Source: Escherichia coli
Lineage (GTDB): Bacteria; Pseudomonadota; Gammaproteobacteria; Enterobacterales; Enterobacteriaceae
Direction: 5' to 3' (one strand)
NCBI RefSeq assembly: GCF_024502345.1
Contig: NZ_JALDNN010000001.1
Length of the DNA: 64,000 bases
The notes below the pieces were generated by a model. That model was not told the origin of the DNA and did not search any database. It worked only from the letters and a program-made list of their open reading frames with translations. This document shows positions 15,461 to 62,568 of the stretch, piece after piece; position 1 is the first letter of the stretch; every line of letters begins with the position of its first letter. The position numbers and the translations under genes were made by a program.

Positions 15461-15652
15461 ATAGTAAGCAGTGGCTCATTCACCGACTTATGTCAGCCCC
15501 TTCGGGACGTGCTACATAAAATTCGAATGACGCACAACAAGGTGCCTGCCGTCCAACTTCTGATATCAGCGTAGCTATATCAACCATCGGGCGAAACGTC
15601 GAGTTAGGCACCGCCTTATTCCATAACAAAGCCGGGTAATTCCCGGCTTTGT
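15461..15652 (+). ncRNA. glmY: Small RNA GlmY
   Basis: Sequence agtggctcattcaccgacttatgtcagcccc... recognised as GlmY; ends in hairpin gccggg-taatt-cccggc plus U-tract (15631-15653); lies between purL and glrK on the same strand. Confidence 0.8.
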
Positions 15653-18017: not shown

Positions 18018-19341
18018 ACCTGCGCATTTATTATTGGTCGATGACGATCCGGGATTGCTGAAACTGCTTGGCCTGCGCCTGACCAGCGAAGGCTACAGTG
18101 TGGTCACGGCGGAAAGTGGCGCTGAAGGATTACGGGTACTGAATCGCGAAAAAGTAGATTTAGTTATCAGCGACCTGCGGATGGATGAAATGGACGGTAT
18201 GCAGCTGTTTGCTGAAATCCAGAAAGTGCAGCCGGGAATGCCGGTAATTATTCTTACCGCGCATGGTTCTATTCCCGATGCCGTTGCTGCAACACAGCAG
18301 GGCGTTTTTAGTTTCCTCACCAAGCCTGTCGATAAAGACGCGCTATATCAGGCAATTGATGATGCGCTGGAACAATCCGCGCCAGCCACCGACGAACGCT
18401 GGCGCGAGGCGATTGTCACCCGCAGCCCGCTGATGCTGCGTTTGCTGGAACAGGCGCGGCTGGTGGCGCAATCAGACGTCAGCGTTTTGATTAATGGCCA
18501 GAGCGGCACCGGGAAAGAGATTTTCGCCCAGGCTATCCACAACGCCAGCCCGCGCAATAGCAAACCATTTATTGCTATTAACTGTGGTGCATTGCCTGAG
18601 CAATTGCTGGAGTCGGAGCTGTTTGGTCATGCGCGTGGCGCGTTTACTGGCGCTGTCAGCAATCGCGAAGGTTTATTCCAGGCGGCGGAAGGCGGAACGC
18701 TATTTCTCGATGAGATTGGCGATATGCCTGCGCCGTTGCAGGTTAAACTGTTGCGCGTGTTGCAGGAGCGTAAAGTGCGCCCGCTGGGCAGTAACCGCGA
18801 TATTGATATCAATGTGCGGATTATTTCTGCCACTCACCGTGATCTGCCAAAAGCGATGGCGCGCGGGGAATTCCGCGAAGATCTCTATTACCGCCTCAAC
18901 GTTGTCAGCCTGAAAATTCCGGCACTGGCGGAGCGCACAGAAGACATTCCGCTACTGGCAAATCACCTGTTGCGCCAGGCGGCAGAGCGGCATAAACCGT
19001 TTGTCCGCGCGTTCTCTACCGATGCGATGAAACGCCTGATGACCGCGAGCTGGCCGGGTAATGTGCGCCAGTTGGTCAACGTGATTGAACAGTGCGTGGC
19101 ACTGACCTCATCTCCGGTGATTAGTGATGCATTAGTAGAGCAGGCGCTGGAGGGCGAAAATACGGCGCTGCCAACCTTTGTTGAGGCACGTAATCAGTTT
19201 GAACTCAACTATTTGCGTAAGCTGCTGCAAATTACCAAAGGCAACGTCACCCACGCGGCGAGAATGGCGGGGCGCAACCGGACAGAATTTTATAAACTGC
19301 TTTCCCGACACGAGCTGGATGCAAACGATTTCAAGGAATGA
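18007..19341 (+). CDS. glrR: Sigma54-dependent response regulator GlrR (QseF)
   Basis: Start set at ATG 18007 ([14 protein letters not shown], 444 aa); receiver domain, AAA+ sigma54-activator domain with GAFTGA, C-terminal HTH. Confidence 0.9.
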
Positions 19342-19784: not shown

Positions 19785-20975
19785 TCACAGCACCTTATGC
19801 GGGCCAAAGCATTCGTAATGAATGTTTTCCTGCTTCACGCCCAGATCCACTAACTGTTTCGCGGCAAACTGCATGAAGCCAACCGGGCCGCAGAGATAGA
19901 ACTGCATTGTCGGATCGCTGAACGCACCTTCCAGTTTGCTCAAATCCATCAGACCTTCGCTATCAAACTGACCTTTAGCGCGATCGGCTTCGCTCGGCTG
20001 ACGATACCAGGTGTGCGCGGTAAAGCGCGGCAGTGACTGCCCCAGTTCCTTAACTTCATCGGCAAAGGCGTGAACATCGCCATTTTCTGCCGCATGGAAC
20101 CAGTTCACTTGTGCTGTGTGGCCTGCTTTTGCCAGCGTGTCGAGCATTGCCAGCATTGGCGTTTGACCAACACCGGCAGAGATTAACGTCACTGGTGTGT
20201 CATCTGCGACAGCCATAAAGAAATCACCTGCCGGAGCGACCAGTTTCACGACATCGCCAACATTGGCGTGATTGTGCAACCAGTTGGATACCTGCCCACC
20301 CTCTTCGCGTTTCACCGCAATACGATAGCCTTTGCCATCCGGTTTGCGAGTCAAAGAGTACTGACGAATTTCCTGATGCGGGAAACCTTCCGGCTTCAGC
20401 CAGACGCCGAGATATTGCCCCGGACGGTATTCTGCCACTGCGCCACCGTCGACCGGCTCCAGTTCGAAGCTGGTGATAAGCGCGCTGCGCGGTGTTTTAG
20501 CCACAATGCGGAAATCGCGAGTACCTTCCCAACCACCGGCTTTGCTGGCGTTTTCGTTATAGATTTCCGCCTCGCGATTGATAAATACATTAGCCAGTAC
20601 ACCATAGGCTTTACCCCACGCGTCCAGCACTTCCTGCCCCGGGCTGAACATTTCGTCCAGCGTTGCCAACAGGTGTTCACCGACGATGTTGTACTGTTCC
20701 GGTTTGATCTGGAAGCTGGTGTGCTTCTGCGCGATTTTTTCTACCGCTGGCAGCAGCGCAGGCAGGTTTTCAATATTACTGGCGTAGGCGGCAATAGCGT
20801 TAAACAGGGCTTCACGTTGATCGCCATTACGCTGGTTACTCATGTTAAAAATTTCTTTGAGTTCTGGGTTATGAGTAAACATACGGTCGTAGAAATGGGC
20901 GGTTAACTTTGGCCCCGTTTCCACCAGTAAAGGGATGGTGGCTTTTACTGTAGCGATGGTTTGAGCGTCAAGCAT
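19785..20975 (-). CDS. hmp: Flavohemoprotein (NO dioxygenase)
   Basis: Start set at ATG 20975 ([17 protein letters not shown], 396 aa) with AAGGAAG SD; globin domain plus FAD/NAD reductase domain. Confidence 0.92.
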
Positions 20976-20999
20976 ATGGTCTTCCTTTTTTTGCATCTT

Positions 21000-21024
21000 A
21001 ATTGATGTATCTCAAATGCATCTT
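21000..21024 (-). promoter_or_regulatory. NsrR-type operator in hmp promoter
   Basis: Minus-strand reading AAGATGCATTTGAGATACATCAATT resembles the NsrR inverted-repeat consensus; located just upstream of hmp. Confidence 0.5.
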
Positions 21025-21302
21025 ATAAAAAATAGCCCTGCAATGTAAATGGTTCTTTGGTGTTTTTCAGAAAGAATGTGATGAAGTGAAAAATTTGCAT
21101 CACAAACCTGAAAAGAAATCCGTTTCCGGTTGCAAGCTCTTTATTCTCCAAAGCCTTGCGTAGCCTGAAGGTAATCGTTTGCGTAAATTCCTTTGTCAAG
21201 ACCTGTTATCGCACAATGATTCGGTTATACTGTTCGCCGTTGTCCAACAGGACCGCCTATAAAGGCCAAAAATTTTATTGTTAGCTGAGTCAGGAGATGC
21301 GG

Positions 21303-22556
21303 ATGTTAAAGCGTGAAATGAACATTGCCGATTATGATGCCGAACTGTGGCAGGCTATGGAGCAGGAAAAAGTACGTCAGGAAGAGCACATCGAACTGAT
21401 CGCCTCCGAAAACTACACCAGCCCGCGCGTAATGCAGGCGCAGGGTTCTCAGCTGACCAACAAATATGCTGAAGGTTATCCGGGCAAACGCTACTACGGC
21501 GGTTGCGAGTATGTTGATATCGTTGAACAACTGGCGATCGATCGTGCGAAAGAACTGTTCGGCGCTGACTACGCTAACGTCCAGCCGCACTCCGGCTCCC
21601 AGGCTAACTTTGCGGTCTACACCGCGCTGCTGGAACCAGGTGATACCGTTCTGGGTATGAACCTGGCGCATGGCGGTCACCTGACTCACGGTTCTCCGGT
21701 TAACTTCTCCGGTAAACTGTACAACATCGTTCCTTACGGTATCGATGCTACCGGTCATATCGACTACGCCGATCTGGAAAAACAAGCCAAAGAACACAAG
21801 CCGAAAATGATTATCGGTGGTTTCTCTGCATATTCCGGCGTGGTTGACTGGGCGAAAATGCGTGAAATCGCTGACAGCATCGGTGCTTACCTGTTCGTTG
21901 ATATGGCGCACGTTGCGGGCCTGGTTGCTGCTGGCGTCTACCCGAACCCGGTTCCTCATGCTCACGTTGTTACTACCACCACTCACAAAACCCTGGCGGG
22001 TCCGCGCGGCGGCCTGATCCTGGCGAAAGGTGGTAGCGAAGAGCTGTACAAAAAACTGAACTCTGCCGTTTTCCCTGGTGGTCAGGGCGGTCCGTTGATG
22101 CACGTAATCGCCGGTAAAGCGGTTGCTCTGAAAGAAGCGATGGAGCCTGAGTTCAAAACTTACCAGCAGCAGGTCGCGAAAAACGCTAAAGCGATGGTAG
22201 AAGTGTTCCTCGAGCGCGGCTACAAAGTGGTTTCCGGCGGCACTGATAACCACCTGTTCCTGGTTGATCTGGTTGATAAAAACCTGACCGGTAAAGAAGC
22301 AGACGCCGCTCTGGGCCGTGCTAACATCACCGTCAACAAAAACAGCGTACCGAACGATCCGAAGAGCCCGTTTGTGACCTCCGGTATTCGCGTGGGTACT
22401 CCGGCGATTACGCGTCGCGGCTTCAAAGAAGCAGAAGCGAAAGAACTGGCTGGCTGGATGTGTGACGTGCTGGACAGCATCAATGATGAAGCCGTTATCG
22501 AGCGCATCAAAGGTAAAGTTCTCGACATCTGCGCACGTTTCCCGGTTTACGCATAA
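21303..22556 (+). CDS. glyA: Serine hydroxymethyltransferase
   Basis: Start set at ATG 21303 ([16 protein letters not shown], 417 aa); PLP-lysine motif region [14 protein letters not shown]. Confidence 0.96.
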
Positions 22557-27722: not shown

Positions 27723-27731
27723 CGGCAGTGT
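27723..27731. repeat. Target-site duplication, left copy (CGGCAGTGT)
   Basis: Identical 9-mer immediately flanks both IS ends. Confidence 0.9.
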
Positions 27732-28788
27732 GGCTTTGTTGAATAAATCGAACTTTTGCTGAGTTGAAGGATCAGATCACGTATCTTCCCGACAACGCAG
27801 ACCGTTCCGTGGCAAAGCAAAAGTTCAAAATCACCAACTGGCCCACCTACAATAAAGCCCTCATCAACCGTGGCTCCATAACTTTCTGGCTGGATGATGA
27901 AGCTATTCAGGCCTGGTATGAGTCAGCAACACCTTCTTCACGAGGCAGACCTCAGCGCTATTCTGACCTTGCCATCACGACTGTGCTGGTCATTAAACGC
28001 GTATTCAGGCTGACCCTGCGCGCTGCGCAGGGCTTTATTGATTCCATTTTTTCTCTGATGAACGTTCCGCTACGCTGCCCGGATTACAGCTGTGTCAGCA
28101 GGCGGGCAAAGTCGGTTAATGTCAGTTTCAAAACGCCCACCCGGGGTGAAATCGCACACCTGGTAATTGATTCCACCGGGCTGAAGGTCTTCGGTGAAGG
28201 CGAGTGGAAAGTCAAAAAGCATGGCCAGGAACGCCGCCGTATCTGGCGTAAGCTGCATCTCGCCGTTGACAGTAAAACACATGAAATCATCTGCGCTGAC
28301 CTGTCGCTGAACAACGTTACGGACTCAGAGGCCTTCCCCGGGTTAATCCGGCAAACCCACCGGAAAATCAGGTCAGCCGCCGCCGATGGCGCTTACGATA
28401 CCCGGCTATGTCACGATGAACTGCGGCGTAAGAAAATCAGCGCGCTTATCCCTCCCCGAAAAGGTGCGGGTTACTGGCCCGGTGAATATGCAGACCGTAA
28501 CCGTGCAGTGGCTAATCAGCGAATGACCGGGAGTAATGCGCGGTGGAAATGGACAACAGATTACAACCGTCGCTCGATAGCGGAAACGGCGATGTACCGG
28601 GTAAAACAGCTGTTCGGGGGTTCACTGACACTGCGTGACTACGATGGTCAGGTTGCAGAGGCTATGGCCCTGGTACGAGCGCTGAACAAAATGACGAAAG
28701 CAGGTATGCCTGAAAGCGTGCGTATTGCCTGAAAACACAACCCGCTACGGGGGAGACTTACCCGAAATCTGATTTATTCAACAAAGCC
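27732..28788 (+). mobile_element. IS903-group insertion sequence (IS5 family), 1057 bp
   Basis: 18-bp perfect terminal inverted repeats ggctttgttgaataaatc at 27732-27749 and reverse-complemented at 28771-28788; single DDE transposase ORF; flanked by 9-bp direct repeats. Confidence 0.9.
27809..28732 (+). CDS. IS903-type transposase
   Basis: Frame open from 27764; GTG at 27809 gives 307 aa, matching the remembered IS903 transposase length; true start codon uncertain. Confidence 0.8.
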   Translation: MAKQKFKITNWPTYNKALINRGSITFWLDDEAIQAWYESATPSSRGRPQRYSDLAITTVLVIKRVFRLTLRAAQGFIDSIFSLMNVPLRCPDYSCVSRRAKSVNVSFKTPTRGEIAHLVIDSTGLKVFGEGEWKVKKHGQERRRIWRKLHLAVDSKTHEIICADLSLNNVTDSEAFPGLIRQTHRKIRSAAADGAYDTRLCHDELRRKKISALIPPRKGAGYWPGEYADRNRAVANQRMTGSNARWKWTTDYNRRSIAETAMYRVKQLFGGSLTLRDYDGQVAEAMALVRALNKMTKAGMPESVRIA

Positions 28789-28797
28789 CGGCAGTGT
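28789..28797. repeat. Target-site duplication, right copy (CGGCAGTGT)
   Basis: Identical to 27723-27731. Confidence 0.9.
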
Positions 28798-44552: not shown

Positions 44553-45293
44553 ATGCTGCAAAATATTCGAATTGTGCTGGTGGAGACGTCACACACCGGC
44601 AATATGGGTTCTGTTGCCCGTGCCATGAAAACAATGGGATTAACCAATCTGTGGCTGGTTAATCCACTGGTGAAACCCGACTCCCAGGCGATTGCCCTGG
44701 CGGCGGGGGCCAGCGATGTGATTGGTAATGCTCACATCGTCGATACGCTCGACGAAGCGTTAGCCGGTTGTAGCCTGGTGGTGGGCACCAGCGCACGCTC
44801 CCGCACGCTGCCGTGGCCGATGCTCGACCCGCGCGAATGCGGTCTGAAAAGCGTCGCTGAAGCGGCAAATACCCCGGTGGCGCTGGTGTTTGGTCGCGAA
44901 CGTGTCGGCCTGACCAATGAAGAGTTGCAGAAGTGTCATTATCATGTCGCGATTGCCGCTAACCCTGAATACAGCTCGCTGAACCTGGCGATGGCGGTTC
45001 AGGTTATTGCCTATGAAGTGCGTATGGCCTGGCTGGCAACTCAGGAAAATGGCGAGCAGGTCGAGCATGAAGAGACGCCGTATCCGCTGGTCGATGATCT
45101 GGAGCGTTTTTATGGTCATCTGGAACAAACGCTGTTGGCAACCGGTTTTATCCGTGAAAACCATCCGGGGCAGGTGATGAATAAATTGCGCCGTCTGTTT
45201 ACCCGTGCGCGCCCGGAAAGCCAGGAATTGAATATCCTGCGCGGGATTCTGGCTTCTATAGAGCAGCAGAATAAAGGTAATAAGGCCGAATAA
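44553..45293 (+). CDS. trmJ: tRNA (cytidine/uridine-2'-O)-methyltransferase TrmJ
   Basis: 246 aa SpoU-class methyltransferase. Confidence 0.92.
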
Positions 45294-45300
45294 CAGTGGT

Positions 45301-45383
45301 TGCCTGATGCGACGCGTAACGCGTCTTATCAGGCCTACAGTGCACAGAGTCCCAGGGCGGATATGGCGTTCACGCCGCATCCG
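45301..45383. repeat. REP elements downstream of trmJ
   Basis: tgcctgatgcgacgcgtaacgcgtcttatcaggcctac and ggcggatatggcgttcacgccgcatccg palindromic units. Confidence 0.6.
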
Positions 45384-45449
45384 ACAACAGGTACAAACAC
45401 CACGATAAAAAAATGGCACTGAAGGTTAAATACCCGACTAAATCAGTCA

Positions 45450-45520
45450 AGTAAATAGTTGACCAATTTACTCGGGAATGTCAGACTTGACCCTGCTATG
45501 CAATACCCCCACTTTTACAA
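45450..45520 (+). promoter_or_regulatory. iscR promoter region with candidate IscR operators
   Basis: aaatagttgaccaatttactcgggaatgtcagacttgaccctgc contains two TTGACC -35-like hexamers and the sequence remembered for IscR type-1 sites; exact boundaries not verified. Confidence 0.45.
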
Positions 45521-45562
45521 TAAAAAACCCCGGGCAGGGGCGAGTTTGAGGTGAAGTAAGAC

Positions 45563-46051
45563 ATGAGACTGACATCTAAAGGGCGCTATGCCGTGACCGC
45601 AATGCTTGACGTTGCGCTCAACTCTGAAGCGGGCCCGGTACCGTTGGCTGATATTTCCGAACGTCAGGGAATTTCCCTTTCTTATCTGGAACAACTGTTT
45701 TCCCGTCTGCGTAAAAATGGTCTGGTTTCCAGCGTACGTGGACCAGGCGGTGGTTATCTGTTAGGCAAAGATGCCAGCAGCATCGCCGTTGGCGAAGTGA
45801 TTAGCGCCGTTGACGAATCTGTAGATGCCACCCGTTGTCAGGGTAAAGGCGGCTGCCAGGGCGGCGATAAATGCCTGACCCACGCGCTGTGGCGTGATTT
45901 GAGCGACCGTCTCACCGGTTTTCTCAACAACATTACTTTAGGCGAACTGGTTAATAACCAGGAAGTGCTGGATGTGTCTGGTCGTCAGCATACTCACGAC
46001 GCGCCACGCACCCGCATACAAGACGCGATCGACGTTAAGTTACGCGCTTAA
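45563..46051 (+). CDS. iscR: Fe-S cluster assembly transcriptional regulator IscR
   Basis: 162 aa Rrf2-family, [19 protein letters not shown]. Confidence 0.96.
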
Positions 46052-46291
46052 TTTAACCGTCCTGTTTCGTGTTGCATCTGCGTTGACTGCACATACTCAC
46101 TCCGGTCACTTACTTATGTAAGCTCCCGGAGATTCGTAAGTTTGTCAACTTGCTGAAACCCGAAACAGTTAGGTTAAAGATAACAAGATATTAGAATCAG
46201 GCCGGGGCGTATCGCGCTCCGTAAACACGGTCGTACATCCAGCCGGTAGCCTGGTTCCTTGCATTGAGTGATGTACGGAGTTTATAGAGCA

Positions 46292-52889: not shown

Positions 52890-53666
52890 ATGTCCGAAAC
52901 AAAAAACGAACTTGAAGACCTGCTGGAAAAAGCAGCAACCGAACCGGCGCACCGCCCGGCCTTTTTCCGTACTCTACTGGAATCCACCGTCTGGGTGCCA
53001 GGTACGGCGGCGCAGGGCGAGGCTGTGGTTGAAGATAGCGCGCTTGATTTACAGCACTGGGAAAAAGAAGACGGCACCAGCGTTATTCCTTTTTTCACCT
53101 CGTTAGAAGCACTTCAACAGGCGGTTGAAGACGAACAGGCATTTGTCGTAATGCCCGTTCGCACATTGTTTGAGATGACCCTTGGCGAAACGCTCTTCCT
53201 TAATGCCAAACTGCCGACCAGTAAAGAATTTATGCCGCGTGAAATCAGTTTGTTGATTGGTGAAGAGGGAAATCCGCTGAGCAGCCAGGAAATCCTGGAA
53301 GGCGGTGAATCGCTGATATTATCGGAAGTCGCAGAGCCGCCAGCACAAATGATTGATTCACTCACCACCTTATTTAAAACTATTAAGCCGGTGAAGCGTG
53401 CTTTTATATGTTCAATTAAAGAGAACGAAGAGGCACAGCCTAATTTACTTATTGGCATTGAAGCCGATGGTGATGTCGAAGAAATTATTCAGGCGGCGGG
53501 AAGTGTAGCGACCGATACATTACCTGGCGATGAACCAATCGATATTTGTCAGGTGAAAAAAGGGGAAAAAGGAATTAGCCACTTTATTACCGAACATATT
53601 GCGCCATTCTATGAACGTCGTTGGGGTGGTTTTTTGCGTGACTTTAAACAGAACCGGATAATCTAA
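52890..53666 (+). CDS. sseB: SseB family protein (serine sensitivity enhancing B)
   Basis: 258 aa from ATG 52890 (MSETKNELEDLL); alternative GTG 52881 would add 3 aa. Confidence 0.85.
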   Translation: MSETKNELEDLLEKAATEPAHRPAFFRTLLESTVWVPGTAAQGEAVVEDSALDLQHWEKEDGTSVIPFFTSLEALQQAVEDEQAFVVMPVRTLFEMTLGETLFLNAKLPTSKEFMPREISLLIGEEGNPLSSQEILEGGESLILSEVAEPPAQMIDSLTTLFKTIKPVKRAFICSIKENEEAQPNLLIGIEADGDVEEIIQAAGSVATDTLPGDEPIDICQVKKGEKGISHFITEHIAPFYERRWGGFLRDFKQNRII

Positions 53667-53697
53667 AATATGCCGCCCCAAAGGGCGGCATTCGGGC

Positions 53698-53823
53698 TTA
53701 CCTGCTGTTCTGAAGGTTGTTAACCACCAGTAAATTGTTGCCGGAGAGACTCAGGTTATTATTTACCTCGGTTAACAGCGCACCAGAAACAATAAGTACG
53801 ATACAAAAGCACCGTATCTTCAT
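53698..53823 (-). CDS. Candidate small hydrophobic protein (41 aa), TimP-like type I toxin
   Basis: ATG at 53823 (minus) to TAA 53700-53698; translation MKIRCFCIVLIVSGALLTEVNNNLSLSGNNLLVVNNLQNSR; basic N-terminus then hydrophobic stretch; weak GGA SD; in-frame upstream ATG at 53835 also possible. Confidence 0.4.
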   Translation of the reverse strand: MKIRCFCIVLIVSGALLTEVNNNLSLSGNNLLVVNNLQNSR

Positions 53824-53886
53824 TGTGCGGTCCATGCGAAGACCGCATCACGACAGCACCACTGGCGATATTGCCGCGATAGCAAG

Positions 53887-53903
53887 CGCTGAGACGCGCT
53901 TGC
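53887..53903. repeat. 17-nt direct repeat copy A (cgctgagacgcgcttgc) within ryfA leader, embedded in palindrome agcaagcgc-tgagac-gcgcttgct
   Basis: Exact 17-mer recurs at 54047-54063. Confidence 0.85.
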
Positions 53904-54011
53904 TCTAACGGTCGCGGAACATCCTTTCCTTAAGCCAGCGCCCGCTTGCGAGACGGCGGAAAGGGCCGCAGTGGATAATACACTAACAGAACAATAATAA
54001 CTCTCTTTTGC

Positions 54012-54040
54012 TTGACAAAAAGAGAGTTACTGGCGAGTAT
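54012..54040 (+). promoter_or_regulatory. Candidate sigma70 promoter for a plus-strand small RNA
   Basis: Perfect -35 TTGACA (54012-54017), 17-nt spacer, weak -10 GAGTAT (54035-54040); sits in an 11-bp perfect palindrome aactctctttt / aaaagagagtt (53999-54029). Confidence 0.3.
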
Positions 54041-54046
54041 TGTCTC

Positions 54047-54063
54047 CGCTGAGACGCGCTTGC
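54047..54063. repeat. 17-nt direct repeat copy B (cgctgagacgcgcttgc)
   Basis: Exact match to 53887-53903. Confidence 0.85.
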
Positions 54064-54114
54064 ATTACTACGGTAATACAACCTGCTGGAAAGGCCGCGA
54101 ACCAGACCAGCAAT

Positions 54115-54142
54115 AAAAAACCGCCAAATTCGGCGGTTTTTT
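54115..54142. terminator. Bidirectional rho-independent terminator (sseA 3' end / plus-strand sRNA)
   Basis: aaaaaa-ccgcc-aaattc-ggcgg-tttttt: A-run and T-run flank the stem so it terminates in either direction. Confidence 0.7.
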
Positions 54143-62482: not shown

Positions 62483-62568
62483 TCTGTTTTGTCCCTGATT
62501 GTTGCTAAAACTCATTTTATTTTAAAAAAATGTTACCTTCATCAATAGTCAACGGCCCTGTTGCTCAT

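Follow-up and report, generated by a model that had tools for sequence, protein, structure and literature searches.

RESULTS

The divergent hmp and glyA genes

The hmp and glyA genes lie back to back in the DNA that we have analysed, a 64-kb stretch of Escherichia coli (64,000 nucleotides) referred to below as the window. The coding sequence of hmp (hmpA), which encodes the NO dioxygenase/flavohaemoglobin, occupies 19785-20975 on the minus strand and was assigned from its open reading frame (ORF) and from the RefSeq annotation of identical DNA, with the annotated ATG at 20975 and a protein beginning with MLDAQ. The glyA coding sequence (serine hydroxymethyltransferase) occupies 21303-22556 on the plus strand according to its ORF and the RefSeq annotation, and the annotated protein begins with MLKREMN. 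In window coordinates, the interval between the two genes is 20976-21302. Its 327 bp, the same length as in E. coli K-12 MG1655, are those given in a preliminary description of the region, which had its coordinates right.

A species survey with one genome each provided 80 enterobacterial Hmp loci. Enough upstream DNA was present in 78 of them, and these loci and the window made up the 79 sequences that were compared. glyA was divergent from hmp in 78/78 loci, with a spacer of 272-346 bp. This comparison also bore on the gene starts, given that longer mechanical ORFs of 403 aa (hmp) and 419 aa (glyA) begin at in-frame ATGs further upstream. The ATG at 20996, with which the 403-aa ORF of hmp starts, is not conserved across the 79 sequences, and the upstream in-frame ATG of glyA adjoins the Shine-Dalgarno sequence. 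The hmp Shine-Dalgarno sequence was read as AGGAAG at 20981-20986 (minus strand), within an AAGGAAG block that is 0.8-0.9 conserved in the 79 sequences. The conserved glyA leader with its Shine-Dalgarno sequence spans 21280-21298 on the plus strand (AGGAG at 21292-21296) and showed a mean conservation of 0.99 in the same alignment.

The DNA between 20700 and 21600 was 100% identical to that of MG1655, where the flanking genes are glyA (b2551) and hmp (b2552). Among 5426 complete E. coli genomes, 5425 carried the control region as a single copy, with an identity of at least 99% in 5401 of them and with neighbours annotated as glyA and hmpA; the hmp-proximal 155 bp followed the same single-copy pattern. 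The full 64-kb window is not K-12, being 98.4-99% identical to MG1655, with indels. When it was aligned to MG1655 by BLAST, interruptions or overlaps occurred at 45293-46180 (upstream of iscR) and at 53953-54142 (by ryfA), which indicates small indels or repeat differences relative to K-12. At 27732-28788, yphF is split by an IS5-family (IS903-like) insertion sequence that is absent from MG1655. This 1057-bp element carries terminal inverted repeats beginning with GGCTTTGTTGAATAAATC and encodes a 322-aa DDE transposase, and it is flanked by the 9-bp target duplication CGGCAGTGT (27723-27731 and 28789-28797). Five Rfam elements reached the gathering score in the window, namely rncO (2586-2800), ohsC (6213-6289), GlmY (15470-15617), the iscRS stability element (46181-46290) and ryfA (53665-53969).

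The Rfam scan of the control region revealed no known RNA element, its sole match being miRNA-like and attributable to chance (E = 0.36), and the scan of the region for terminator-like sites found none. Regarding base composition, the glyA side had been described as AT-rich. This was at best loosely true. The region has 38.8% GC compared with 52.8% in the window, but GC content is lower in the hmp half (34%) than in the glyA half (44%). Taken together with the results presented below, we are confident that the interval is the well-studied divergent hmp/glyA control region, with an NsrR operator over the hmp promoter and a MetR/PurR module for glyA.

An NsrR operator upstream of hmp

The NsrR regulon includes hmp, ytfE, hcp-hcr and ygbA. 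The element brought forward in the preliminary description as resembling the NsrR operator was a 25-mer, AAGATGCATTTGAGATACATCAATT, whose sequence was confirmed as the reverse complement of 21000-21024. It stops 24 nt before the hmp ATG and includes the operator proper, a 23-bp element with an 11-1-11 layout, AAGATGCATTT-G-AGATACATCAA, at 21002-21024 on the minus strand, which stops 26 nt before the ATG.

We have scored the window with a 23-mer matrix built from 25 published NsrR sites (Table 4 of Mehta et al. 2015, PMC5320621), from which hmp was omitted and which was symmetrised. The best score over both strands of the 64 kb, 18.1 bits, fell at 21002-21024. A scan with an NsrR matrix was the test on which the preliminary description had staked its claim, and the best site was found at exactly this position and nowhere else in the region. 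When the intergenic region was shuffled by dinucleotides, 4 of 2000 shuffles attained this score, as did 5 of 100 window shuffles. The match thus goes beyond chance, and on motif score alone its significance over 64 kb is modest. The second-best 23-mer match in the window, TCATTTTATTTTAAAAAAATGTT (62512-62534, 15.8 bits), is an AT-rich sequence where ndk and rlmN meet; its score is inside the range of the window shuffles, and we have judged it to be probably a chance match.

The two arms of the operator contribute very unequally to its fit to the 23-bp NsrR motif, AAGATGCATTT-N-AAATGCATCTT. The left arm is a perfect AAGATGCATTT and ranked first among 127,980 half-site positions, and the right arm is poor (2.4 bits). 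The element had also been presented as an inverted repeat. In this respect the likeness to the NsrR motif stood, but the symmetry is imperfect, with agreement at 7 of 11 arm positions, and a de novo inverted-repeat search of the region reported none. The operator was missed by that search because it is too imperfect to be picked up without the NsrR motif as a guide.

The published record left little room for doubt on the identity of the element. The literature describes NsrR as an Fe-S protein that represses hmp and is sensitive to NO. Mehta et al. 2015 (PMC5320621) gave TTGATGTATCTCAAATGCATCTT as the 11-1-11 NsrR site of hmp, with a ChIP-seq peak between glyA and hmp that comes from strain CFT073, and TTGATGTATCTCAAATGCATCTT is the plus-strand sequence of window positions 21002-21024. 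The same study listed the half-sites "hmp (44)", AAGATGCATTT, and "hmp (19)", AAGATGCAAAA; with these numbers read as distances of the centres from the ATG, the half-sites map exactly to window positions 21019 and 20994. Earlier, Rodionov et al. 2005 (PMC1274295) had predicted an NsrR site, GATGCATTTgAgATaCATC, at -48 of E. coli hmp. In Salmonella, an nsrR mutant showed constitutive Hmp that was complemented in trans, and NsrR shifted a Salmonella hmp probe in EMSA. The flagged element is therefore the already documented NsrR binding site of hmp, a correct but ordinary identification. We have noticed an inconsistency in PMC5320621 between the centre of the predicted hmp site (2948634) and the ChIP peak (2948718, "34 bp upstream of hmp"), which are 84 bp apart; the sequences themselves are unambiguous.

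The second of these published half-sites, AAGATGCAAAA, is located in the hmp 5' UTR at 20989-20999 (minus strand). It was found independently here as a direct repeat of TGCATCTTA, and with the half-site matrix it scored 7.7 bits (rank 94 of 127,980 positions). Among the 79 sequences this weak extra half-site was not conserved outside Escherichia. Neither the half-site nor the FNR box described below had been reported in the preliminary description.

Across the 79 sequences, the best NsrR site was found at the same place in every one, 17-38 nt before the ATG. The median score was 27.1 bits and the highest 31.6 bits, the maximum of the matrix being 32.5, and the lowest value, 18.1 bits, belonged to E. 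coli and its closest relatives. In the alignment, the operator arms were 0.8-1.0 conserved and the central spacer base (21013) only 0.3, and the base at position 21011 was specific to E. coli. The Klebsiella-type operator has the sequence AAGATGCATTTAATATGCATCAT.

Overlap of the operator with the hmp promoter

The hmp -35 hexamer was identified in a promoter scan as TTTACA at 21044-21049 (minus strand), which was invariant in 79/79 sequences. The same scan placed the -10 hexamer, TAAGAT, at 21020-21025 (minus strand), under the left arm of the operator, and TATAAGAT was present in 74/79 sequences. The spacer between the two hexamers measures 18 nt in the window and 17 or 18 nt across species. 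The alternative -10 reading TATAAG was disfavoured, since its spacer would be 15 or 16 nt across species, and TAAGAT was preferred for its 17/18-nt spacing. The probable transcript start is a G at 21013 on the minus strand, 7 nt downstream of TAAGAT. The same base is obtained as +1 from the described extent of the FNR site at hmp, -2 to +11 with its centre at +5.5. Judging from the hexamer geometry and from this layout of the FNR site, the operator probably covers the hmp +1 as well. Overlap with the hmp promoter about 25 nt upstream of the start codon, as originally proposed, was thus borne out, with the conserved -10 lying inside the overlap.

The position of the promoter raised the alternative that there is no operator at all. 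In that case, an AT-rich sigma-70 promoter (-10, discriminator and start) would be what is conserved and what the matrix recognises, and its similarity to NsrR sites would be coincidental. The top-scoring half of the element does overlap the -10, the region is AT-rich, the matrix score is within reach of window shuffles, and the inverted repeat escaped de novo detection. Against this, the right arm is conserved as far as 21003, well beyond what a -10 and a transcript start need, with a single spacer base free to vary, and the scores of the orthologous sites come close to the maximum of the matrix. The ChIP-seq peak and the EMSA represent published occupancy that already contradicts this explanation, which we regard as scarcely credible. 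An NsrR operator laid over the hmp promoter accounts for the observations.

An FNR box nested in the operator

The right half of the operator contains a 14-bp FNR box, TTGAGATACATCAA, at 21002-21015 (minus strand), with one mismatch to the consensus TTGAT-N4-ATCAA. Scanning the window with the FNR consensus returned 5 such matches, with 2.4 expected, a count that is not significant alone. Myers 2013 listed the hmp FNR site as predicted and "silent", without an FNR ChIP-seq peak, and cited Cruz-Ramos 2002 as prior evidence for FNR binding at hmp.

A box with at most one mismatch was present in just 11 of the 79 sequences, from Escherichia and some Citrobacter. The quality of the FNR box increased as the NsrR score decreased (Spearman 0.47 over the 79 sequences, with no phylogenetic correction). 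Part of this trend is inherent in the two motifs, which make conflicting demands at three operator positions. At these three positions, E. coli follows FNR at two and neither motif at one. Two changes in favour of the FNR box leave E. coli with the weakest NsrR match among the 79 sequences. The FNR-specific bases are the terminal AA (21002-21003) and the G at 21013.

These observations led us to weigh whether the element could be primarily an FNR operator, with FNR as the repressor and the likeness to NsrR sites as a by-product of motif similarity. The single mismatch of TTGAGATACATCAA and the binding attributed to Cruz-Ramos 2002 by Myers 2013 are compatible with such a reading, and when the two consensus sequences were compared, with FNR aligned at operator positions 10-23, the NsrR consensus agreed with FNR at 6 of the 10 positions that the FNR motif specifies. 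On the other hand, NsrR ChIP-seq gives a peak at hmp whereas FNR ChIP-seq does not, and a good FNR box is restricted to the 11 sequences mentioned above, whereas the left arm of the NsrR site, which lies outside the box, is near-invariant in all. Furthermore, the number of FNR motifs in the window is within chance and hmp is derepressed in nsrR mutants. A primarily FNR operator is, in our view, very improbable, and the element is best described as an NsrR operator that includes an FNR box. Masking of the box by NsrR may plausibly account for the absent FNR ChIP signal.

A tandem MetR-like pair

The glyA side had been considered able to hold the MetR- and PurR-regulated promoter of glyA, and this agreed with what was found, namely a MetR-like pair of sites and a PurR box, neither of which the preliminary description had confidently located. 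The reported MetR consensus is ATGAA-N5-TTCAT. Two MetR sites have been reported for the hmp-glyA region, and the hmp-proximal one has been reported to influence hmp too. A scan with the 13-mer TGAA-N5-TTCA allowing one mismatch was uninformative, since it returned 29 matches in the window with 26 expected. We have therefore placed the MetR sites with the 15-mer consensus, conservation and spacing in place of the 13-mer. Site A, the hmp-proximal one (GTGAAAAATTTGCAT, 21086-21100), has two mismatches to the consensus, and at most two mismatches were found in 71/79 sequences. The glyA-proximal site B (CTGAAAAGAAATCCG, 21108-21122) is more divergent (4/10 mismatches) and 0.8-1.0 conserved. The centres of the two sites are 22 bp apart and the gap between them is 7 nt in 78/79 sequences. 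We infer that sites A and B are the two reported MetR sites, the coordinates being those assigned here.

The pair might instead bind another factor, e.g., NarP, with the true MetR sites located elsewhere, for instance at 21043-21057 over the hmp -35, where there is a further MetR-like match with two mismatches (ATGTAAATGGTTCTT). The divergence of site B would be compatible with such an assignment, and a NarP candidate is marked in the alignment of Figure S3 in Rodionov 2005 (PMC1274295). The conservation of site A and the fixed 22-bp distance between centres, which is the usual LysR-type tandem layout and has a counterpart in the -63/-41 sites of metE, point to MetR, as does the rigid spacing of the pair from the glyA promoter, expected for glyA activation. 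The match at 21043-21057 has at least three mismatches in 63/79 sequences and was rejected as a MetR site, its conservation being better explained by the invariant TTTACA of the -35. A different factor at 21086-21122 thus seems unlikely, and assignment of the pair to MetR is the reading that we retain.

The PurR box and the glyA promoter

The PurR operator of glyA, AGGTAATCGTTTGCGT, was located at 21169-21184. With a PurR matrix built from the sites of Cho et al. 2011, glyA and purL omitted, it obtained the top score of the window (21.5 bits), which was reached by none of 2000 and none of 100 shuffles. The box fits the 16-bp palindrome ACGCAAACGTTTGCGT, lies upstream of a gene of the regulon and was conserved in 79/79 sequences. 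In Cho 2011, where ChIP-chip showed that PurR binds the glyA site in vivo, the motif has exactly the same sequence and likewise lies 119-134 nt before the glyA ATG. 

The second PurR matrix score in the window (20.8 bits) was that of ACGCAAACGGTTTCGT at 11175-11190, upstream of purL, which when read on the opposite strand gives the purL site of Cho 2011. A third PurR-like box, ATGCAAACGATTTCAA (19319-19334, 14.2 bits), is situated within glrR at its 3' end, and the glnB ATG (19402) follows it at a distance of 68-83 nt. PurR control of glnB has been reported in the literature, and binding there was not detected by Cho 2011.

Downstream of the PurR box, a conserved block (TTGTCAAGACCTGTTATCG, 21193-21211, plus strand), recognised by promoter scan and conservation, includes the glyA -35 region. 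The -35 could be either CTGTTA (21203-21208), with TATACT as its -10, or TTGTCA (21193-21198), with AATGAT as its -10. TATACT at 21226-21231 (plus strand) is the probable glyA -10, being present in 72/79 sequences with each position conserved to at least 0.9, and glyA transcription would then start near 21238. AATGAT (21215-21220), which the promoter scan had paired with TTGTCA, was disfavoured as a -10 given its conservation of 0.4-0.9. The distances that separate the block from the PurR box (8 nt) and from TATACT (14 nt) are fixed in 79/79 sequences.

From site A to TATACT the whole layout is rigid, the successive distances of 7, 46, 8 and 14 nt being kept in 77-79 of the 79 sequences. On the other side, the poorly conserved stretch between site A and the hmp -35 (21050-21085) falls into two length classes of about 36 nt or about 14 nt, the latter with 23 sequences. 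The two classes differ by 22 nt, i.e., two helical turns, and thus preserve the phase of the helix with respect to the hmp promoter. The rigid spacing to TATACT argues that the MetR/PurR module belongs architecturally to glyA, with its helical phase to hmp retained.

DISCUSSION

The essentials of the region analysed here are already known from published work, and the current understanding of hmp or glyA regulation is unchanged. The value of the analysis is mainly that of a quality check, in which a reading of the sequence alone recognised a textbook element and the published NsrR and PurR sites were reproduced to single-base precision. What is mildly new is the weak, FNR-compromised operator of E. 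coli compared with those of other enterobacteria, together with a spacing map of the region. The latter comes from the 79-sequence comparison and combines a fixed spacing of the glyA module with a variable, but helically phased, spacing towards hmp.

The operator overlaps the -10 and the probable start of hmp, an NO-stress gene, and repression by promoter occlusion, relieved by NO, follows from this arrangement as the most likely mode, inferred from the layout. Holo-NsrR, an Rrf2-family dimer with an iron-sulfur cluster, would occupy the operator and exclude RNA polymerase sterically. Nitric oxide damages the NsrR cluster, and departure of the protein then allows hmp transcription. From the same DNA, FNR could add an anaerobic, NO-sensitive repression through the box inside the operator. 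MetR with homocysteine activates glyA, probably through the tandem pair, and PurR with hypoxanthine or guanine represses it modestly.

As a tentative suggestion, which we hold to be possible without favouring it, the hmp operator of Escherichia may have lost some NsrR affinity in being re-tuned to serve NsrR and FNR alike, a loss for which the Escherichia-only half-site might compensate. If this were true, hmp would be leakier and more oxygen-dependent in E. coli than in Klebsiella or Enterobacter, and occupancy by NsrR would explain an FNR site without a ChIP signal.

Comparison with known systems

The operator does not differ from the published E. coli hmp NsrR site, with which it shares the sequence, the 11-1-11 layout, the promoter overlap and in vivo NsrR binding. 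The hmp site of Salmonella Typhimurium, AAGATGCATTTGATATACATCAT, differs from it at two bases, and other enterobacterial hmp operators are stronger NsrR matches. The ytfE NsrR site is a perfect palindrome, whereas the operator in the window matches weakly and its right arm is degenerate. The 14-bp box that we have found inside the operator is the one known as a site of FNR repression at hmp (Cruz-Ramos et al. 2002; Poole et al. 1996). However, it has no ChIP-seq peak in vivo and is limited, among the 79 sequences, to Escherichia and some Citrobacter.

On the glyA side, the PurR box is identical in its 16-bp sequence and in its offset to the known PurR operator of glyA (Steiert et al. 1990, 1992; Cho et al. 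2011). Many operators of the pur regulon are located between the -35 and the -10 (14/32, Cho 2011), whereas the glyA box lies upstream of the -35 block, and therefore PurR cannot act here by plain occlusion of the -10 or -35. The MetR-like pair resembles the tandem MetR sites of glyA (Lorenz and Stauffer 1995, 1996) and those of metE-metR, which likewise consist of two sites about two turns apart, one good and one weak. It differs from metE in its distance to the promoter, the metE sites being at -63 and -41 and the centres of the pair, with the coordinates assigned here, about 110-135 nt upstream of TATACT.
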